Numbered from the whole stretch's first letter, positions 6,105 to 57,774 are shown. The stretch is 63,409 nucleotides of DNA, filler included, from 7 parts of 7 records of this genome joined end to end with filler, not necessarily neighbours in it, one strand, 5' to 3'. Notes: generated by a model from the letters alone, not told the origin. Made by a program: numbers and translations.

Positions 6105-6204
6105 NNNNNNNNNNNNNNNNNNNNNNNNNNNNNNNNNNNNNNNNNNNNTTAATTAATTAANNNNNNNNNNNNNNNNNNNNNNNNNNNNNNNNNNNNNNNN
6201 NNNN
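6105..6204. other. Artificial contig spacer N44-TTAATTAATTAA-N44
   Basis: Identical 100-bp spacer with stops in all six frames, occurring six times in the window. Confidence 0.98.
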
Positions 6205-6855
6205 GCCGCGCTGCAGGAAGTGTTCCTGATCCGGGGCGCGTTCATAGGCATAGCCCGGGGAAATGGTAATCCCTTCAACCTGCAGTTCGTTGGTGCAGAA
6301 ATCAAAGAACTCTGCGCATTCCTCAGCTGTCATCTGGTTGAACAGCGTGCAGTTGACGTTGACGCGGAAACCACGGGCCTTGGCGGCCTTGATGGCAGAA
6401 ACGGCACGCTTGAAGGTGCCTTTCTGCGCCACGGCGTGATCATGGTGCTCTTCAAGACCGTCCAGATGCACCGAGAAGGTCAGGTACGGTGACGGCGTAA
6501 AGTCATCAAGCCGCTTTTCGAGCAGGAGGGCGTTCGTGCAGAGGTAGACAAACTTCTTCCGGGCCACGATGCCTTCGACGATCTGCTTGATTTCCTTATG
6601 GATCAGCGGCTCACCACCTGGGATCGAGACGATGGGGGCGCCGCAATCATCGACGGCTTCCATGCATTCCTCGAAACTCAGGCGTTTGTTGAGGATGTCG
6701 TCCTCGTAATCGATCTTGCCGCAACCGGGGCAGGCGAGATTGCAGCGGAACAGAGGCTCCAGCATGAGGACCAGCGGGTATTTTTCAACGCCCTTCAGGC
6801 GCTGCTTCATGATGTAAGCACCGACACGCGCTTGCTGAATCAATGGAACGGTCAT
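6205..6855 (-). CDS. hpnH: Adenosyl-hopene transferase HpnH (radical SAM), 3'-truncated by contig end
   Basis: KYPLVLMLEPLFRCNLACPGCGKIDY N-terminus with CxxxCxxC, and ISPGYAYERAPDQEHFL, both typical of HpnH; directly downstream of ispH. Confidence 0.93.
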
Positions 6856-6856
6856 A

Positions 6857-7819
6857 TCAGTCTCCGGCCGCGCTGGCGGGTGAGGCATCCGTCAGTTCAC
6901 GCGGCAGTTTGAATACGACGTTTTCTTCGACGCCTTCGTGGTTGCGGACGACGGCATCGCAGATTTCCTTGATACGGTCGACCACGCCCTGAACAAGTTC
7001 TTCTGGAGCTGAAGCCCCGGCTGTCAGACCAACTTTCCTGACGCCCTGGAACCAGTTCTCGTCGATCATGGTGGCGTCGTCGATCAGATAAGAAGGCGTG
7101 CCGTTCTCACCGCCAAGTTCCGCCAGGCGGTTGGAATTCGAGCTGTTCTTGGCACCGACGACCAGCAATAGATCAACGACCTGGGATAATTCCCGGACGG
7201 CCTGCTGACGGTTCTGCGTTGCATAGCAGATGTCTTTGACGTCAGGCCCGACAATGCTTGGGAAGCGTTTTTTGAGGGCATTGATGGTGGCCCGGGTTTC
7301 GTCAACCGAGAGCGTGGTCTGTGTGACATAGGAGAGCTTTTCCGGGTCATCAACGACAAGATCATCAACTTCGGAAGGATCGCTGACGATCAATACGCCG
7401 CCGGGGATACGTCCTTCGGTGCCTTCGACCTCCGGATGGCCGCGGTGGCCGATCAAGATAACCTGACGGCCCTTGCTGGCCTGATTCTGGCCTTCCTTGT
7501 GTACTTTCGAAACAAGAGGGCATGTGGCGTCAATAACGGGCAGTTCACGTGCCCGGGCAGCGATTTCGACTTTTTCGGCAACACCATGCGCACTGAAGAT
7601 GGTGACGGCCCCTTCGGGGATTTCGTCGATCTCGTCGACAAAGATTGCTCCCTTGGCACGCAAGGATTCAACGACATGTTTGTTGTGGACGATCTCATGG
7701 CGCACATAGATCGGCGGGCCATACTTGGTTATCGCCCGTTCGACGATTTCGATGGCACGTTCGACGCCCGCACAAAATCCGCGCGGATTGGCAAGGATGA
7801 TTTCGACTGGTTCGCTCAT
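6857..7819 (-). CDS. ispH: 4-hydroxy-3-methylbut-2-enyl diphosphate reductase
   Basis: [46 protein letters not shown] and TAGASAP motifs. Confidence 0.97.
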
Positions 7820-7997
7820 AAAATCAATAATCCCGGGGTGTACAGAAATGCCGGAAATGCCTGTGCAGTCCGGTCTTTCCTTAAAGGTGGCCTTAAAACC
7901 ACATCTATCAATGGCTGTTTAACGTCTTTACCCCGGTTTTTCCATGGAAAACTCTGAAAATCAGTGCTTGTTTGTCGATCCAGGACAGGAATGAAGC

Positions 7998-9008
7998 GTG
8001 CAGATTAATCAAGGCCCCTATCTCGTAACCGGTGCGACAGGCTTCGTCGGCTCTGCCGTCGTGCGTGAATTGCTGGAAAAAGGCGCGGATGTCCGGGTGT
8101 TGGCACGGCCAGGCAGTGACCGGCGGAACCTCGCGGGACTGAAAGTCACCGTCTGTGAGGGGGATCTGCTGCAGCCCGAAAGTCTACGCAGGATGCTGGA
8201 TGGCTGTGCCGGTCTTTTTCACGTTGCAGCGGATTACAGGATCTGGACTCGCGATCCGGACGCCATGTTCCGGGCAAATGTCGAGGGTACGCGAACGATT
8301 CTCAAACTGGCCCACGATGCAGGGATTAAAAGGTCCGTCTATACCTCAAGCGTGGCGGTGCTTGGTATTGACCCGACAGGAAGGCCTGCCGACGAGGAAA
8401 CCCACGTTTCTTACAGGGATATGATTGGCGTTTATAAACAGTCCAAATACCGTGCTGAGCAAGCCTGCATGGAGGTCATTGCGGAAACCGGACATGACTG
8501 TGTGATCGTCAACCCGTCAACGCCGATCGGCCCGCGCGATATCAAACCCACCCCAACCGGCCGGCTCGTGGTTGAAGCGGCTTCGGGGCGCATGCCGGCC
8601 TATGTGGATACCGGCCTGAACGTCGCACATGTCGATGATGTTGCTGCGGGTCACTTGCTGGCTTTTGAGAAGGGGCAGCAGGGACGGCGCTATATCCTGG
8701 GCGGTGAGGACATGACGTTGCGTGACATCCTCACCACGGTTGCAGGGTATGCAGGGGTGAAGCCTCCCCGCATGCAAATCCCCCGAGCCCCGATCTATCC
8801 GATGGCATGGCTGGCGGAGCGCTGGTGCGCCCTGACCGGTAGCGGCGAGCCGTTTGCCACCGTTGACGGACTCAGGATGTCAAAAAAGAAGATGTTCTTT
8901 TCATCAGCACGTGCCGAAGCCGAGCTTGGTTACCGCCACAGAGCCGGTGTGGACGCCTTGGCAGATGCAGTCGACTGGTTCCGTGAGAACGGTTATCTCG
9001 GGCACTGA
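7998..9008 (+). CDS. hpnA: Hopanoid-associated NAD-dependent epimerase/dehydratase HpnA
   Basis: TGATGFVG Rossmann motif, FHVAADYRIW, YKQSK (YxxxK), NPSTPIGPRDIKPTPTG; hpn gene context. Confidence 0.9.
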   Translation: MQINQGPYLVTGATGFVGSAVVRELLEKGADVRVLARPGSDRRNLAGLKVTVCEGDLLQPESLRRMLDGCAGLFHVAADYRIWTRDPDAMFRANVEGTRTILKLAHDAGIKRSVYTSSVAVLGIDPTGRPADEETHVSYRDMIGVYKQSKYRAEQACMEVIAETGHDCVIVNPSTPIGPRDIKPTPTGRLVVEAASGRMPAYVDTGLNVAHVDDVAAGHLLAFEKGQQGRRYILGGEDMTLRDILTTVAGYAGVKPPRMQIPRAPIYPMAWLAERWCALTGSGEPFATVDGLRMSKKKMFFSSARAEAELGYRHRAGVDALADAVDWFRENGYLGH

Positions 9009-9073
9009 TCCGCCGGTTCTTGACTTGGCGTCCCATACGATAAAGATACGCGCGTCAGAACAAGGACAGACAA

Positions 9074-9820
9074 ATGCATGCCATCATTCTCGCCGCCGGG
9101 GTCGGCAGCCGGCTCTTCGGCGACAGCCGGACACAGCCGCCCAAAAGCCTGATCGAATTTGACGGGAAGACCCTTTTGGCCCGCCACATCGAATACCTGC
9201 AGGGGTTCGGGGTCAAAAAACTGACCCTCGTCGTCGGCTATCGCAAGGACCTCGTTGTGGCAGAAGCCGAGCGTTGTGCGCCACCGGGATTTCTGGAGGT
9301 CATCGAAAACCCGATGTATCGCGGCGGAAGTATCATTTCGATGTGGTATGCACGTGAAACCTATCGGCGTGGCGAAAAGGTCCTCTTCATGGATGCCGAT
9401 GTTCTCTATGACACCGCTATTCTGGAGCGCTTGATCGGCAGCGCCGAAGCAAGTGCTTTCGTCTACGATGATGATCTGGATGAGGGGGATGACCCTGTCC
9501 GAATCTGTTTGCGTGATGCGCATGTCGTCGATTTCGGAAAGCGGATCGTCGGCCAGTTCGAAGCAATGGGTGAATGGCCGGGTTTCATGACCGTTTCTGC
9601 GGAAACCGGGCCGCTGCTGGCAGCCTCGCTCGAAAATTATATCGAAGGCGGGCAGTTGATGGCGACGTACGAAGAAGCGATCCGTGACGTCATTATCGGG
9701 GGACCGGTCGGTGTGTTCGGCATTGTGGATGTTTCCGATCTCGACTGGATCGAAATCGATTTTCCGGAAGACCTGGAGCGGGCCCGGGAGGTTATCCTGC
9801 CGAAATTGCTCGGCAGCTAG
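9074..9820 (+). CDS. LicC/PntC-like phosphocholine/phosphonate cytidylyltransferase (NTP transferase)
   Basis: AIILAAGVGSRL...PKSL, MDADVLYD and WIEIDFPEDLERA signatures of the LicC-type nucleotidyltransferase family. Confidence 0.85.
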   Translation: MHAIILAAGVGSRLFGDSRTQPPKSLIEFDGKTLLARHIEYLQGFGVKKLTLVVGYRKDLVVAEAERCAPPGFLEVIENPMYRGGSIISMWYARETYRRGEKVLFMDADVLYDTAILERLIGSAEASAFVYDDDLDEGDDPVRICLRDAHVVDFGKRIVGQFEAMGEWPGFMTVSAETGPLLAASLENYIEGGQLMATYEEAIRDVIIGGPVGVFGIVDVSDLDWIEIDFPEDLERAREVILPKLLGS

Positions 9821-9823
9821 TCC

Positions 9824-10579
9824 TTACACCCGGAATACATAATCCTTGTTCGGATCACGGTCGATGTCGGGCGGGAAGTTCTTATGCTTATCCGCATAGT
9901 ACTGTGCCATATGATCGCCCGCGGATTGACGGTTGTAGGTAGCGTAGTAGATCCGGCGAACGTCATCGCTCATGTTGGCTTCGGACGCGTGCGGCGCATA
10001 GCAGTCAAAAAACACGATATCACCCGGTTCGGTCGGCACCGGCTCGAAGCTCATGCCTTTCATTTCTTCTTCGTTCAGCGGTTCCCAGGATTTCACCAGA
10101 CCTGATTTATGGTGACCTGCAACCAACTGCAGACAGCCGTTCTCAAGTGTCGCCCGGTCGATGCTGATAAGGGCGGAAATGAAGAAATCGGCATACGTAT
10201 CCCACCCGGCCTGGCTGTCCTGATGCGGGGCAAAGCCGCCGCCGCCGGGCATCTTGAAATTGATCTTTTCCTTGAACAGGACGGCCGGCTCACCAAGCAA
10301 TTGCGCGACAGGCGCTTTCAGCGCATTCGTCATGGCCTCAAAGCCACTGTGGAAAGGGGCAATGTTTTCGATCCGGTTGACCAGATCGGCGCCGTCCTTG
10401 CGGCTTTTTTCATGGTATACCCAATGCCGCCCGGATACTTCCGGCATCTTCAGAACTTCGTCGGTCCAAGTCGAAATCAGCGTCATGTCTTCTGCGCTGA
10501 AACCGCCGCGTTTGACAAGATAGCCGTCGCGCTCGAAGGCTGCGAGATCGTCATCGGTTAAAATGGGTGTCTGGAGCAT
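9824..10579 (-). CDS. PhyH-family Fe(II)/2-oxoglutarate dioxygenase, PhnY-like (2-aminoethylphosphonate 1-hydroxylase-like)
   Basis: HQD...H facial triad (FAPHQD, YAPHASEAN), LFKEKINFKMPGG, ENGCL and C-terminal YYADKHKNFPP. These segments resemble the AEP dioxygenase PhnY as I recall it. Confidence 0.82.
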   Translation of the reverse strand: MLQTPILTDDDLAAFERDGYLVKRGGFSAEDMTLISTWTDEVLKMPEVSGRHWVYHEKSRKDGADLVNRIENIAPFHSGFEAMTNALKAPVAQLLGEPAVLFKEKINFKMPGGGGFAPHQDSQAGWDTYADFFISALISIDRATLENGCLQLVAGHHKSGLVKSWEPLNEEEMKGMSFEPVPTEPGDIVFFDCYAPHASEANMSDDVRRIYYATYNRQSAGDHMAQYYADKHKNFPPDIDRDPNKDYVFRV

Positions 10580-10740
10580 TTTTTATCTCTCTGGGCCGGT
10601 CAGTTCGGGCATCGTATAACGCTAGACGGTTAGGCTGTCACGGAGAGTGTTCAATGAAAACAGGACAAAGACCTTGTTTGAATTCCCTCCCTCCTTCAGA
10701 AGATATGCCACAGACAAATGGTTTTCATAAGAGGTAACAC

Positions 10741-11886
10741 ATGATCGAAGCGGATACCTTCCTTCGAGAGGCAAAATTCAAGGGCTTCGACTTTTTTACC
10801 GGGGTGCCCTGTTCGTTTCTGACGCCGCTGATAAACGGTGTGCTGAATGACAGCAAAACACCCTACGTGGCCGCTGCCAGTGAAGGGGAAGCTGTGGCGA
10901 TCGCCGCCGGTGCGTGGCTCTGTGGCCGGAAAACGGTGGTCATGTTCCAGAATTCGGGATTGGGGAATGCCGTCAATCCGCTGACGTCCCTGAACTATCC
11001 ATTTCAGATTCCAACCCTGGTCATTTGCACGTGGCGGGCCGGGCCAGGGCTCAAAGATGAACCGCAGCACGAACTGATGGGTGAAATCACACCCGACCTG
11101 TTTGAGACAATGCGCATTCCCTACAGTCTTTTCCCGTCGGAAGATGACCGGGTCGGCTCGGTGCTGGATGATACCCTGGCGCAGATGGAAGAAAGCCAGT
11201 TGCCAGCAGCATTTATCATGCAAAAAGGTGACGTGGCCGATCAGGAACTTTCAGGTGATGTGGTGACGCCGGTTGCCGAAGCCGGCGGTCCTGTATCCGA
11301 CCGCAGCGTATACGGCCCGGTGCCAAGCCGTTACGAGACGCTGGAAGCGATGCTTGGCATTGCGCCGGACAATGCCGGTATCATCGTCACCACCGGCAAG
11401 GCGGGGCGGGAACTGTTCACGATTTCCGACCGCAAACAGCATCTGTATCAGGTCGGTTCCATGGGCTGCGCTGCCGGCATGGGGCTGGGTGTCGCCCTGA
11501 ATACGGAAAAGCCGGTGATCGTTGTCGACGGCGACGGCGCGCTGATGATGAAGATGGGGACCCTGGCAACCATCGGTGCATACCGGCCGAAGAACATGGT
11601 GCATCTGGTTTTGGATAACGGGACGTATGACTCGACGGGCGGACAGCCGACGGTTTCCGGCGGGGTCGACTTTGCCGCTGCGGCTTCTGCCTGCGGTTAC
11701 AGCCATGCTGTTCGCGTCGATGATATTGGCGGATTTGAACAGGCTTTGGACCAAGCTCTGAAGTCTGACGGACCGACGCTGATCCATATGAAGATCGCGC
11801 CGGGTTCGCTGGAAACGCTTGGCCGCCCGACCGTGAAGCCACCGGAAGTCGCCCGCCGCTTCAGGGCGTTTATGATGGAAGATTAG
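10741..11886 (+). CDS. aepY: Phosphonopyruvate decarboxylase (ThDP-dependent)
   Basis: FFTGVPCSFL, ASEGEAVAIAAG, QNSGLGNAVNPLTSL, DEPQHELMG, GSMG and the ThDP motif DGDGA...LDNGTYDSTGGQPT in one 381-aa chain. Confidence 0.92.
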   Translation: MIEADTFLREAKFKGFDFFTGVPCSFLTPLINGVLNDSKTPYVAAASEGEAVAIAAGAWLCGRKTVVMFQNSGLGNAVNPLTSLNYPFQIPTLVICTWRAGPGLKDEPQHELMGEITPDLFETMRIPYSLFPSEDDRVGSVLDDTLAQMEESQLPAAFIMQKGDVADQELSGDVVTPVAEAGGPVSDRSVYGPVPSRYETLEAMLGIAPDNAGIIVTTGKAGRELFTISDRKQHLYQVGSMGCAAGMGLGVALNTEKPVIVVDGDGALMMKMGTLATIGAYRPKNMVHLVLDNGTYDSTGGQPTVSGGVDFAAAASACGYSHAVRVDDIGGFEQALDQALKSDGPTLIHMKIAPGSLETLGRPTVKPPEVARRFRAFMMED

Positions 11887-11890
11887 TGGC

Positions 11891-12502
11891 ATGTCTCACG
11901 ATACATGGATCCACAAGATCGCCCGGGCGACCATCGTCAGACCACTTGCCAAAACGGCCGTCACACCCAATCAGGTGACAACGGTCCGGATTATTGCCGG
12001 GGTTGCAGCGGCCATCTCGCTGGCTTATGGGGCAAGGGAAACGGCGGTCTATGGCGCTGTGCTGTTCATGCTGTCGATGCTGCTGGACCGTGCAGACGGC
12101 GATCTGGCGCGATTGACGGGGCGAACGAGTCCGGGGGGGCATACCTATGACCTGTTTGCCGATGCGTTCTGCAACACCTTGATATTTGTCGGTCTCGGCA
12201 TCGGGTTGCGCAGTAGTGAATTCGGCCTGTGGGCAATCCCGATGGGCATGCTGGCGGGCGGGGCCGTGGCAACCATCCTCATGCTGGTGATCCGGATCGA
12301 GAAACTGCAAGGGGCCCGCGCCGCCGAAATCGGAAGCTTCTTCGGCTTTGATCCGGACGATGCGATGCTGGCAATTCCTGTTGCCGTCCTGCTCGGCTGG
12401 TCACAGGGACTGCTGGTGGCTGCATGTATCGGCGCCCCAGCGTTTGCCCTGCTGTTTATTTTCCTTTTCAGGAAAGCCCTCAGGGACGCGCGCGCATCCT
12501 GA
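11891..12502 (+). CDS. CDP-alcohol phosphotransferase family protein (complete motif)
   Basis: TPNQVT and DRADGDLAR-x6-GGHTYDLFAD match DxxDGxxAR..GxxxDxxxD; multiple hydrophobic helices; starts 4 nt after aepY. Confidence 0.9.
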   Translation: MSHDTWIHKIARATIVRPLAKTAVTPNQVTTVRIIAGVAAAISLAYGARETAVYGAVLFMLSMLLDRADGDLARLTGRTSPGGHTYDLFADAFCNTLIFVGLGIGLRSSEFGLWAIPMGMLAGGAVATILMLVIRIEKLQGARAAEIGSFFGFDPDDAMLAIPVAVLLGWSQGLLVAACIGAPAFALLFIFLFRKALRDARAS

Positions 12503-13097
12503 GCAGCGTGACACAGGTATATAGACAATAGATCGTCGCACCAATCCCGGCGGCAATGAAGAAGGGATACAGATAACCGAGCCACGTCACCGGCCAGATC
12601 AGATAGATTCCGTCTTCAAGCTCAAAGCCGCCAAAACCAGGATATCCGACGGAGTCGCCTGTTTCGTCGCCGCCGGTCTGACGATCAATGCCAAGATTGG
12701 TAAACATGGAAATCAGTGCTGCCGCCGCGCCGCCTGAACCGAGTATGATCGCCCAGTTTCCGAGGTCGCTTTCCCTGAACCCCCAGCCCATGCAGAAAAA
12801 AAGTGCCGCATAGCTGATCGATCCGACGATGTAATCAAGGTAATAGCCGAGTTTCGAGGTTTTGCCGGACTGGCGCGCCAACTCGCCGTCAAAATGATCA
12901 AGAAACCTTGCCAGAACAAACAGTCCGGCACCCAATGTGGCATCGGCGGCTTCGCCGGTCGCCAATTGTGCAGCACCACCAAGGGCCAGAATTAAAGTGA
13001 AAATCGACACATGGTTCGGCGTGATCGGCGTGTTGACGAGGGGCCGCACCATTACGGCAGCGATCCGTTGATCGTATGGTGGTTTTTTCATGGCCAT
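12480..13097 (-). CDS. CDP-alcohol phosphotransferase family protein (fourth Asp replaced by Gly); start could be 13091
   Basis: TPNHVS and DHFDGELAR..GYYLDYIVG; multiple TM helices. Confidence 0.87.
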   Translation of the reverse strand: MAMKKPPYDQRIAAVMVRPLVNTPITPNHVSIFTLILALGGAAQLATGEAADATLGAGLFVLARFLDHFDGELARQSGKTSKLGYYLDYIVGSISYAALFFCMGWGFRESDLGNWAIILGSGGAAAALISMFTNLGIDRQTGGDETGDSVGYPGFGGFELEDGIYLIWPVTWLGYLYPFFIAAGIGATIYCLYTCVTLLRMRARP

Positions 13098-13261
13098 TTG
13101 GGTGCTCCTGACGATTGGCGGAAAGTGTGCGGCAGGGGCTGCACTGTCAAGAACGGTTGTTCGGAGCGGACTTGCTTCGTATAAGCCCTAAAGGTTCGAC
13201 AACGACCCGGATCAGCCGGGCCGAACGGGAGGGCCGGGTGCAGCCAACAGCGGAAAATCAT

Positions 13262-15566
13262 ATGAGGCAGAGGATCGCCAACTTGATCGGCAGCTGGGTC
13301 GATGCCTGTCAGCGCCGCGCCGCCTTTGTTGTGTGTATCGCACTGTTGATCAGTATTGCCGCCGGGATTTATCTGGCAGGAAACCTGCGTATCGACACGA
13401 ATAACGAGGATATGCTCTCGGCTGAATTGCCGTTCCGCCAAAATGCCATTGCACTGGATGCGGCATTCCCGGTGCTCGATGATAATCTTCTGGTGGTGCT
13501 GGAAGCGCCTAATGCGGATGCTGCGGATGACGGCGTACGCCGCTTGGCCGATGCAATGCGGAACCGTTCGGACGTTTTTGAGAGTGTTTTCAGCGCAGAA
13601 GATAGCCCTTATCTGAGAAAGAACGGGCTGCTTTACCTTGAAACAGCCGAACTCGAAGACCTTTCAACTCGCCTTGCCGCAGCCCAGCCGTTTCTGGGGA
13701 CGCTTTGGCAGCAGCCCAATCTTGCAGGCCTGGCAGACATGCTGGAACTGATGGCCGGAGAGGGTACGGATGCGAAGACTTCCGAACAGGCCGGGAATGT
13801 TATCGGTAAAATGGCCGACGTCGCGGAGCGGATTCGGACCGGGCATAATGCAAATCTAATTTGGTCCGAGGTCATTCTGGGAGGCAAGCCGGCAACACCC
13901 CCCGTTCGCCGTCTGATCCAGACCAAGCCCAAACTTGATTACGGCTCGCTGCATCCGGCGGCGCATGCTGCGGATACCTTGCAGGCCATTGCGGCTGCAG
14001 AAGGCCTGAACGAGAATGGATACAAACTACGCCTGACAGGCTCAGCTGCGCTCGAAAGCGATGAGCTCAAAAGCGTTGAAGTTGGAATGGGCACAGCTGG
14101 CCTGATCTCATTGACCATCGTCGTTGTTGTTTTGCTGGCCGGACTGCGCTCAATCGGCGTCATGGCGGCGCTGTTTGCGACATTGATCATCGGACTGCTC
14201 TGGACTGGGGCATTTGCCATTCTTGCTTTGGGGTCGCTCAACCTTATATCTGTGGCTTTTGCAGTCCTTTTTGTCGGCCTCAGTGTGGACTTCGGTATTC
14301 ATTACGCACTTCGGGCGGCTGAATATGCCGGACGTGCCGAGAGTTGGGCTATCGCCCTGTGGCATGGCGGACGGAGTGTCGGCACTTCGCTGGTGATCTG
14401 CGCCCTGACCACGTCGATTGCTTTCTTTTCATTCTTTCCGACGACCTATGTGGGGCTGGCCGAGCTTGGTCTGATCGCCGGTGTCGGGATGTTCGTGGCG
14501 TTGATTTGCAACCTCACGGTTTTGCCGGCTCTGTTGCGGTTGCTGGTCAGAAAACCACCGGTATTTGAAGTAATGCATGCCCCGGCGGGGAGCGGACGAA
14601 TACTGTCCCGCTTCGCCCCGTTCATCGTCGGGGTGGGCGTGATCAGTGCGATCGCTTCTGGTTGGCTGGCGACAGGGGCACGGTTCGATTTCGATCCCAT
14701 GAATCTCAAGGACCCTGCAGCACCGTCGATGGTGACACTTTTCGACCTGATGGACGACGGGATTGTACATCCGTATTCGGCTGAAATCCTTGCAGACAAT
14801 CCGGAGGCCGCCAGGAAACTCTCGGACACGCTGGAACTGCTGGATACGGTGGAAGGCGTTGACGGTATATTTTCCCTGATCCCGGAAAACCAACAGGACA
14901 AGCTTGCGATCATTGACCGGATGGCCCTGTTTCTGGGGCCGGCTTTCTTTGCGCCGCCGGGTGATATCGCCTTGCCGGTTGAAGAATTGAATAAATCCAG
15001 AAACAGCATCCTTCAAAGCCTGGGACATCTGACATCGAAAAAAGAGCTCGCCGCACCAGCAGCCCGTCTGATGGCGGCCCTAAAGGATGCATCTCCGGAT
15101 CAACTCGTGATGATCAACGAAGGACTGTTCCGCTTTTTGCCGGGGCGCCTGAACGATTTGATGACGGCGATGGAGGCAGACGAAATTCGTCTCGAAACGC
15201 TGCCCGATACGCTGAAAAACAGATATTTGGCGGCGGATGGTACGGTTCGGCTGGAGGTCTTGCCGAAAGCCGATTTGCGTGACCCTGGTGCATTGCGCGC
15301 GTTTGTGACTGATGTGCAGGCTGTGGCACCTCATGTGACGGGCGGACCGGTTATTATCGTTGAAGCCGGGCAGGCGGTGCTGGATGCCTTTGGTAAAGCG
15401 CTGGCAATCTCCCTGATCGGGATCGGTGCCGTGCTTTGGCTGGTCCTGCGAAGAATAGGCGATGTGTTGCTCGTCTTCGCGCCTGTCTGTGTGGCGGCAT
15501 TGTGGACATTGGCGGCGTCAGCCGTTGTCGATGTGCCGTTCAATTTTGCCAATGTGATCGTATTGC
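13262..15566 (+). CDS. hpnN: Hopanoid transporter HpnN (MMPL/RND family), 3'-truncated
   Basis: MLSAELPFRQN, NGLLYL, AQPFLGTL, LNLISVAFAVLFVGLSVDFGIH, FDFDPMNLKDP and PFNFANVIVL; hpn gene context. Confidence 0.88.
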
Positions 15567-15666
15567 NNNNNNNNNNNNNNNNNNNNNNNNNNNNNNNNNN
15601 NNNNNNNNNNTTAATTAATTAANNNNNNNNNNNNNNNNNNNNNNNNNNNNNNNNNNNNNNNNNNNN
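15567..15666. other. Artificial contig spacer
   Basis: N44-TTAATTAATTAA-N44. Confidence 0.98.
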
Positions 15667-22409: not shown

Positions 22410-22509
22410 NNNNNNNNNNNNNNNNNNNNNNNNNNNNNNNNNNNNNNNNNNNNTTAATTAATTAANNNNNNNNNNNNNNNNNNNNNNNNNNNNNNNNNNN
22501 NNNNNNNNN
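22410..22509. other. Artificial contig spacer
   Basis: N44-TTAATTAATTAA-N44. Confidence 0.98.
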
Positions 22510-29307: not shown

Positions 29308-29407
29308 NNNNNNNNNNNNNNNNNNNNNNNNNNNNNNNNNNNNNNNNNNNNTTAATTAATTAANNNNNNNNNNNNNNNNNNNNNNNNNNNNNNNNNNNNN
29401 NNNNNNN
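29308..29407. other. Artificial contig spacer
   Basis: N44-TTAATTAATTAA-N44. Confidence 0.98.
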
Positions 29408-39949: not shown

Positions 39950-40049
39950 NNNNNNNNNNNNNNNNNNNNNNNNNNNNNNNNNNNNNNNNNNNNTTAATTA
40001 ATTAANNNNNNNNNNNNNNNNNNNNNNNNNNNNNNNNNNNNNNNNNNNN
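39950..40049. other. Artificial contig spacer
   Basis: N44-TTAATTAATTAA-N44. Confidence 0.98.
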
Positions 40050-57674: not shown

Positions 57675-57774
57675 NNNNNNNNNNNNNNNNNNNNNNNNNN
57701 NNNNNNNNNNNNNNNNNNTTAATTAATTAANNNNNNNNNNNNNNNNNNNNNNNNNNNNNNNNNNNNNNNNNNNN
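57675..57774. other. Artificial contig spacer
   Basis: N44-TTAATTAATTAA-N44. Confidence 0.98.

Follow-up and report, generated by a model that had tools for sequence, protein, structure and literature searches.

A single marine alphaproteobacterial contig of 9,362 bases (positions 6205-15566), within a 63,409-nucleotide stretch of spacer-joined DNA (hereafter, the window), carries a five-gene cassette set between the hopanoid genes hpnA and hpnN. The cassette encodes a stand-alone cytidylyltransferase (NT), an Fe(II)/2-oxoglutarate dioxygenase (PhyH), a phosphonopyruvate decarboxylase (Ppd), and two CDP-alcohol phosphotransferases (CAP1 and CAP2). We consider this locus to be, probably, a reduced Group 1 phosphonolipid cassette within a hopanoid biosynthesis/export supercluster, which would place a 2-aminoethylphosphonate (AEP) head group from salvaged AEP onto a membrane lipid. 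The gene order on the contig is hpnH, ispH, hpnA, NT, PhyH, Ppd, CAP1, CAP2, hpnN; all five cassette genes are intact, and HpnH, HpnA, and HpnN (TIGR03480) all exceed curated cut-offs.

We used Ppd to search public genomes for relatives; 528 of 600 candidate stretches encode one, and the best 80 loci were kept. Ppd identity to the contig is 95% in locus L023, 93% in L032, and 77-84% in L011, L012, L013, and L015, all six of which come from metagenome-assembled genomes (MAGs) of Rhodospirillales or Thalassospiraceae. The genome of L032, designated G002, has a 4.26-Mb chromosome, and its proteins are 91-98% identical to those of the contig. In L032, the order is hpnD-hpnE-shc-hpnG, then hpnH-ispH, then hpnA-NT-PhyH-Ppd-CAP1-CAP2-hpnN-hpnL-hpnM-hpnM and an mlaA-like gene; shc lies ~2 kb past hpnH in L032, L023, and L011. 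The identical nine genes occur in the identical order in 11 of the best 80 Ppd loci, and because this order recurs, the arrangement is not due to chance. Thirty-five of these 80 loci extend 8 kb or more to each side of Ppd; of the 35, 17 have an hpn context, 17 have a CAP gene, and 15 have both, whereas the other 18 are different phosphonate neighborhoods. NT directly follows hpnA in all hpn-embedded islands seen. Fuller islands have a PepM~NT fusion immediately before Ppd (L013, L018, L022, L025, L031, L046, L070, and L074) or an AEP transaminase (AepZ; L035, L036, L051, L058, L063, and L070, with NF010006 scores of 498-535 bits), and some have a third CAP gene (CAP3) after hpnN. A preliminary description of this DNA, made from the sequence alone, had proposed checking whether the neighborhood is conserved across genomes and whether further pathway genes lie beyond the contig ends: the hpn embedding is conserved and close, and shc and hpnG were found in the L032 cluster, whereas pepM was found nowhere in G002 and the PhnW of that genome lies outside the cassette.

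Some islands contain additional genes. A glutathione S-transferase-like insert between NT and PhyH is lineage-specific (insert sites, listed jointly: L012:8405-9076, L013:6782-7441, L014:4378-5049; L020:8023-8871, L022:6561-7409, L025:6583-7422), and a second lineage-specific insert encodes an EamA/DMT membrane protein resembling the “phosphonate utilization associated” family TIGR03340 (151 bits, under the cut-off). Downstream of hpnN and hpnL, two tandem hpnM (MlaC-like) genes and an MlaA-like lipoprotein gene, followed by rpoH, form a lipid-trafficking module (L032:16141-18550 and the same region of relatives).

The cassette is tied to hopanoid genes across the order to which G002 belongs. 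In a sample of 301 genomes of this order, with a CAP1 orthologue threshold of E <= 1e-20, CAP1 is present in 106 genomes, and shc exceeds its cut-off in 103 of these; shc is found in 66 of the 195 genomes lacking CAP1 and in 169 of all 301 (Fisher p ~1e-30, with shared ancestry ignored). Two of the three CAP1-positive exceptions have shc fragments at contig ends, giving 105 of 106 with shc when fragments are included; in the third, the CAP1 hit is the weakest of the whole sample. In the 89 genomes with listed coordinates for both genes, CAP1 and shc are on the same contig in 43, all within 11.5 kb, and on different contigs in 46. Even genomes whose cassette lies apart from hpn biosynthesis genes contain shc: five of five do (those of L068, L090, L076, L069, and L089), as does genome G384. 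The linkage between the hopanoid genes and the cassette that the preliminary description had reported is therefore conserved and close in the order sample. In a phylum-wide sample, CAP1 was found in only one of 220 genomes besides G002, which is too sparse for statistics.

Based on the PepM model TIGR02320 (cut-off 319.55), PepM is present in 79 of the 106 CAP1-positive genomes, 11 have Ppd without PepM, and 16 have neither (27 of 106 without PepM). The 11 are among 95 Ppd-positive genomes of the order, and they include the nearest relatives of the contig (G002, G003, G004, G012, and G227). As the sampled genomes come without completeness figures, the lack of a gene from any one MAG is weak evidence; the strong case for PepM absence is G002. 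We considered whether an isocitrate-lyase-family paralogue of G002 might be an unrecognized PepM and rejected this, as all four further paralogues score best as PrpB-like proteins and fall under every cut-off. In other relatives, PepM lies inside the island (G006) or elsewhere in the genome (G005, G014, G015, and G016). The PepM of G005, whose island has none, is a stand-alone protein of 331 aa (L091, G005:C9:165678-169490) flanked by two proteins without an NCBIfam match, and this may be a second, different phosphonate locus. In the Ppd tree, the contig falls in one group with L023, L032, and L011, none of which has PepM, and the sister group holds three states: PepM in the island (L013), elsewhere in the genome (L012), and absent (L120). 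Based on these mixed states, PepM came and went repeatedly. The lineage of the contig probably cannot make the carbon-phosphorus bond itself, and endogenous phosphonate synthesis is unlikely.

The genes that remain are under strong purifying selection and are not decaying. Within the PepM-less clade, pairwise ratios of nonsynonymous to synonymous substitution rates (dN/dS, by NG86) are 0.05-0.10 for Ppd, 0.03-0.15 for NT, 0.02-0.07 for PhyH, 0.02-0.12 for CAP1, and 0.04-0.09 for CAP2. Between L023 and L032, both from genomes without PepM, Ppd has a dN/dS of 0.06 at a dS of 0.45. Among 48 PepM-adjacent Ppds, 131 columns show conservation of 95% or higher; Ppd retains these as well, the exceptions being sporadic changes and one shared substitution, L269M. 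We considered a substrate switch in Ppd and set it aside, as these columns hold no clade-wide change apart from L269M.

Reduction goes further in other genomes of the order. The island of L116 (G248) is hpnA-NT-PhyH-CAP1-CAP2-hpnN-hpnL, without Ppd; that of L117 (G273) is hpnA-NT-PhyH-CAP1-hpnN, without Ppd and CAP2; and that of L118 (G035) is hpnA-NT-CAP1, also without Ppd and CAP2. These reduced islands indicate that the invariable core is NT and CAP1 beside hpnA and hpnN, and that the phosphonate-making genes are dispensable. The genomes of L116, L117, L118, and L119 (G059) all keep hpnA-NT-CAP1, with or without PhyH, CAP2, and CAP3, and none has Ppd or PepM anywhere in the genome.

An AEP transaminase is absent from the contig, and the only PhnW of G002 is encoded ~1 Mb away from the cassette in an AEP catabolic operon (L115, G002:C1:3578000-3597900). 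This operon consists of a DeoR-type regulator gene followed by phnS2-phnT2-phnU2-phnW-phnA and a phosphonoacetaldehyde dehydrogenase gene; phnS2-phnT2-phnU2 encode an AEP ATP-binding cassette (ABC) importer, and the operon as a whole provides complete AEP import and catabolism by the phosphonoacetate route. PhnW/AepZ exceeds its cut-off in 100 of the 106 CAP1-positive genomes versus 35 of the 195 CAP1-negative genomes, and in 23 of the 27 CAP1-positive genomes without PepM. This distribution fits a supply of head groups from imported AEP, albeit without proving it.

The closest solved relative of NT is the PntC-AEPT protein Tde1415 of Treponema denticola (6pd1; E 4e-7, residues 2-245). Residues G9, G11, R13, K24, D107, D109, E200, E227, and D229 are invariant in 39 of 39 NT orthologues, all of which are stand-alone and some of which come from PepM-less and Ppd-less islands. 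In Tde1415, E104 and E196 of the PntC domain contact the amine of AEP, and a smaller residue at the Glu104 position has been linked to room for phosphocholine in LicC (PMC6697681). E104 and E196 align with D107 and E200 of NT; the Asp at the first of these positions is what LicC has there. The PepM-fused NT domain is 25% identical to NT; it has Tyr at position 107 (37 of 40 sequences) and either Leu or Met at position 200, and it lacks Arg13. In view of these residue differences, the stand-alone NT looks like the working CMP-AEP synthase, a function that is predicted. PepM~NT fusions (e.g., L013:8256-10004) have no Arg in the G-x-G-x-R motif and neither of the acidic residues common to stand-alone NT, PntC, and LicC; judging from these residues, the activity of the fused domain may differ from what the label “PntC fusion” implies.

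In PhyH, H119-x-D121, H197, and R208/R209 are invariant in 30 of 30 orthologues. The protein matches the methylphosphonate hydroxylase model NF052437 at 170 bits (cut-off 500), with 7-236 of its 251 residues aligned, and by sequence it is a homologue, not an equivalog, of the PhnY*-type hydroxylases. The “PhnY-like dioxygenase” of the preliminary description is indeed a dioxygenase; the name should be PhnY*-like, as the protein resembles the Fe/2-oxoglutarate hydroxylase and not the aldehyde dehydrogenase.

The signature DxxDGxxARx8GxxxDxxxD is complete in all CAP1 (29 of 29) and CAP3 (8 of 8) orthologues. All 23 of 23 CAP2 orthologues have Gly where the fourth Asp would be; even so, CAP2 is highly conserved, still a homologue by its Pfam match, and has an invariant acidic C-terminal motif (Y152, P153, G157, E159, L160, E161, D162, and G163). 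In Mycobacterium tuberculosis PgsA1, that fourth Asp is presumed to act as the catalytic base (PMC6506517); CAP2 may, from its sequence, be a non-canonical enzyme or a partner subunit. The structural model of CAP1 (predicted local distance difference test score, pLDDT, 83.4) matched AF2299 (4q7c, TM score 0.81), IPCT-DIPPS, and phosphatidylinositol phosphate (PIP) synthases in Foldseek. As modeled, CAP1 has the ordinary six-helix fold of CDP-alcohol phosphotransferases, and the fold does not tell the acceptor. Longer proteins were searched for CAP1 fusions whose extra domain could point to the acceptor; this yielded one protein, with PF01066 only. Against NF041135 (cut-off 580), NT matches the IPCT half at 57 bits, and CAP1, CAP2, and CAP3 match the DIPPS half at 31, 34, and 54 bits.

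The evidence partly supports the interpretation given in the preliminary description: the contig carries a reduced version of a known AEP-lipid cassette whose chemistry is unsolved and which is closely tied to hopanoid genes. The “Burkholderiales_CDP-OH” group, which has been equated with the Group 1 phosphonolipids of Yu et al. (2013), accounts for 318 of 882 PepM neighborhoods in RefSeq (PMC8942020, Li & Horsman 2022). Its seven-gene core comprises Ppm~PntC, Ppd, AEP transaminase (AEPT), a 2-oxoglutarate (2OG)/Fe oxygenase, a second PntC, and two phospholipid-synthesis genes, and according to the same authors none of its phosphonolipids has been characterized (PMC8942020). The same cassette, hpnL included, has been drawn in Nostoc and Burkholderia (PMC5987646, Fig. 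7). The contig shares with this family Ppd, the 2OG/Fe oxygenase, the stand-alone PntC-type NT, and the two CDP-alcohol phosphotransferases, and hpnL adjoins the set in relatives; the contig differs in having five of the seven core genes, without PepM~NT and AEPT, and in the placement of the set between hpnA and hpnN. The product of the family is itself only predicted, so the likeness in function rests on prediction. The preliminary description had read the inner genes as an AEP activation and transfer set, and they do match this recognized AEP head-group cassette, to which fuller relatives add PepM~NT and AEPT. It had also rightly suspected that the linkage was already noted; a possible phosphonate-terpene product has been mentioned in passing for Nitrosococcus (PMC8942020), from an antiSMASH call (PMC7285500), and for Acetobacteraceae (PMC8776678). 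What our analysis adds is a PepM-less variant that has been conserved, a series of ever smaller islands ending in a core of NT and CAP1, co-occurrence figures for the order as a whole, an orphan Ppd, and, in CAP2, a fourth Asp whose loss is conserved.

Other characterized systems resemble parts of the cassette. In the Pnt pathway of T. denticola, a LicC-like cytidylyltransferase makes CMP-AEP (PMC6697681). The NT of the contig can be aligned from end to end with the PntC domain of that pathway's Tde1415, albeit at low identity (E 4e-7) and with Asp107 in place of Glu104. In bacteria with this pathway, the downstream transferases are of the LicD type or are glycosyltransferases acting on glycans, whereas the contig encodes CDP-alcohol phosphotransferases. 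The 1-hydroxy-2-aminoethylphosphonate sphingolipid of Bacteriovorax stolpii has a hydroxylated AEP head group, which is the chemistry predicted for the contig cassette; however, it is a sphingolipid, and its gene cluster belongs to a more distant family, GCF 761 (PMC8942020). The IPCT/DIPPS enzymes of Archaeoglobus and Thermococcales (NF041135; PDB 4mnd) have the same folds and combine activation by CTP with transfer by a six-helix CDP-alcohol phosphotransferase, but they are single bifunctional enzymes with soluble inositol phosphates as substrates, whereas the contig has separate genes that score far below the family cut-off. HpnI, HpnJ, and HpnK, which are encoded in hpn clusters, add a polar head group to the terminal hydroxyl of bacteriohopanetetrol (BHT), giving BHT glucosamine and BHT cyclitol ether. 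That tailoring uses glycosyltransferase chemistry without phosphorus, and the contig has no hpnI, hpnJ, or hpnK.

We infer each chemical step of the proposed pathway from the gene content, conservation, co-occurrence, and selection observed above. NT would convert CTP and AEP to CMP-AEP; PhyH would add a hydroxyl at C1 of the AEP group, either ahead of the transfer step or following it; and CAP1, possibly together with CAP2, which is without the presumed catalytic base, would transfer the phosphonyl head group to a hydroxyl of a membrane lipid. Flipping of the product would fall to HpnL, and its outward transport alongside hopanoids to HpnN, HpnM, and the MlaA-like protein. Because PepM has been lost and the only AEP transaminase is in a separate import and catabolism operon, we propose that the head group would come mainly from AEP taken up from seawater. 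As the acceptor we tentatively, and only slightly, prefer the terminal hydroxyl of a bacteriohopanepolyol side chain over diacylglycerol, a choice that sequence cannot make.

Several observations weigh against this proposal, in its phosphonate supply or in its hopanoid acceptor. CDP-alcohol phosphotransferases that act on lipid alcohols normally use diacylglycerol; the cassette lies away from hpn biosynthesis genes in G384, L068, L090, and L076; the co-occurrence counts ignore shared ancestry; and in the literature searched we found no report of a characterized phosphonate-bearing hopanoid. With regard to supply, no PepM above the TIGR02320 cut-off was found in G002, G003, G004, G012, or G013; the preliminary description had listed a genome without pepM as evidence against its reading, and such genomes are what the nearest searchable relatives (G002, G003, G004, and G012) proved to be. 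Marine bacteria commonly carry AEP catabolic genes, whose presence is therefore no demonstration of salvage into lipid. Salvaged AEP leaves a conserved Ppd without a known substrate, and its retention is unexplained; we can only guess at a second substrate, or at phosphonoalanine or phosphonopyruvate being taken up. Lastly, 16 of the 106 CAP1-positive genomes lack both PepM and Ppd, and some islands are cut to hpnA-NT-(PhyH)-CAP1, so the core may use a non-phosphonate head group.

An alternative that we rate as a serious possibility, although somewhat short of even chances, is that CAP1 moves AEP or hydroxy-AEP to diacylglycerol, making a glycerophosphonolipid, and that the cassette sits in the hopanoid cluster through co-regulation or co-export (HpnL, HpnN, and HpnM) for the outer membrane. 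The standard six-helix fold and motif of CAP1, the published prediction of a phosphonolipid for this cassette family (PMC8942020 and PMC5987646), and the four cassettes located away from hpn biosynthesis genes are consistent with it. However, a diacylglycerol acceptor has no need of hopanoids, and shc is present in 105 of 106 CAP1-positive genomes, fragments included, versus 66 of 195 CAP1-negative ones; moreover, abundant as this family is, it has yielded no characterized glycerophosphonolipid of this kind (PMC8942020). It is unlikely, in our assessment, that the PepM-less lineages have turned to a non-phosphonate head group, with NT and CAP1 acting as a Kennedy-type pair on phosphoethanolamine or phosphocholine and Ppd serving another role. 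The 27 CAP1-positive genomes without PepM, 16 of them also without Ppd, the reduction of the L117 and L118 islands to NT and CAP1, and the Asp107 of NT at the Glu104 site of Tde1415, a residue tied to room for phosphocholine in LicC (PMC6697681), point in this direction; against it, the key residues of NT are the same with or without PepM and Ppd (39 of 39), leaving no substrate change visible, PhnW tracks CAP1 even without PepM (23 of 27), the PhnY*-like dioxygenase is retained in the Ppd-less islands L116 and L117, and the conserved columns of Ppd have not shifted.

Two further explanations carry very little weight with us. If the cassette were a decaying remnant, its genes left functionless by the loss of PepM and heading for loss themselves, the repeated loss of PepM inside one clade and the further reduced islands (L116 without Ppd; L117 and L118 without Ppd and CAP2) would be expected; yet the five genes are intact, the catalytic residues of NT, PhyH, and the CAPs are invariant, and dN/dS is 0.02-0.12 at a dS of 0.3-0.5 between L023 and L032, both without PepM, and likewise in deeper pairs. 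A soluble phosphodiester or phosphonodiester, such as an osmolyte, might be made by analogy with IPCT/DIPPS, which joins two soluble molecules; we regard such a product as highly improbable. NT and the CAPs do match the two halves of NF041135, and the best structural matches of CAP1 are AF2299 and IPCT-DIPPS, but all of the NF041135 matches are far under the cut-off of 580, the genes are set among lipid synthesis, flippase-like, and lipid-export genes, and the co-occurrence with shc is strict.

The features of the contig are given below. Open reading frames and family matches bear out the genes given in the preliminary description, together with its 65-nt gap between hpnA and NT, its 4-nt gap between Ppd and CAP1, and its divergent CAP2/hpnN pair; CAP1 and CAP2 are convergent and overlap by 23 nt. 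TBLASTN found no match to pepM, AEP transaminase, or shc anywhere in the window, in agreement with the earlier statement that these genes are not on the fragment. The hpnH part is 95-97% identical to hpnH of L011, L023, and L032. For hpnN, translation might instead begin at a TTG further upstream (13115), and the match to NF052374 (581 bits) is under the cut-off of 1100. Searches of RNA families returned no match at the gathering score, and promoter- and terminator-like sites were not above shuffles. None of 23 sequencing runs is listed as RNA; two that were presumed to be RNA contain nearly identical pieces of the contig but may be its source sample, and they say nothing for or against expression.

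Table. Genes on the contig at positions 6205-15566 of the window, with the family match for each
Gene and product	Position	Strand	Family match
hpnH (adenosyl-hopene transferase, radical SAM); first 228 codons, rest beyond contig end	6205..6888	-	TIGR03470, 366.2 bits (cut-off 225)
ispH (HMBPP reductase); hopanoid-cluster copy	6857..7819	-	NF002188, 484 bits (cut-off 420); PF02401
hpnA, hopanoid-associated SDR (“sugar epimerase”); no assigned function	7998..9008	+	TIGR03466, 486.5 bits (cut-off 367.65)
NT, stand-alone PntC/LicC-like cytidylyltransferase; predicted maker of CMP-activated head group	9074..9820	+	PF12804, 55 bits
PhyH, Fe(II)/2-oxoglutarate dioxygenase (PhnY*-like); predicted C1 hydroxylase of AEP moiety	9824..10579	-	PF05721, 99 bits
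Ppd, phosphonopyruvate decarboxylase (TPP enzyme)	10741..11886	+	TIGR03297, 427.6 bits (cut-off 312.5)
CAP1, CDP-alcohol phosphotransferase; full catalytic signature	11891..12502	+	PF01066, 48.9 bits
CAP2, paralogous CDP-alcohol phosphotransferase; fourth Asp of signature is Gly	12480..13097	-	PF01066, 42.1 bits
hpnN (RND hopanoid transporter); C-terminal part beyond contig end	13262..15566	+	TIGR03480, 755.5 bits (cut-off 751.85)

The window (1-63409) consists of seven contigs joined by N spacers at 6105-6204, 15567-15666, 22410-22509, 29308-29407, 39950-40049, and 57675-57774, and these contigs come from at least three source organisms. The contig at 40050-57674 is 99% identical to genome G001, and the contig at 15667-22409 has no match to G001, G002, or G003. 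G001 was considered as kin of the cassette-bearing contig and rejected, with only two short pieces of ispH matching (71-72%), so the absence of Ppd and PepM in G001 is uninformative here. Because the window mixes organisms, its other contigs provide no context for the cassette.

The cassette family comprises 318 of 882 RefSeq PepM neighborhoods, and its product is still uncharacterized (PMC8942020). The near-absolute co-occurrence with shc is a reason to search for this product in hopanoid fractions and in hopanoid mutants. Our analysis also exposes a puzzle, namely a phosphonopyruvate decarboxylase kept by purifying selection without a known source of its substrate. We offer as a speculation, with the odds clearly against it, that the product of this commonest bacterial phosphonate cluster family is a hopanoid with a 2-aminoethylphosphonate or 1-hydroxy-2-aminoethylphosphonate head group, and that the PepM-less marine lineages build the same lipid from scavenged AEP. 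If this is true, the marine phosphonate pool would feed membrane building, beyond its role in phosphorus nutrition, and if some marine bacteria do build phosphonate lipids from imported AEP, gene surveys based on pepM only would miss them.

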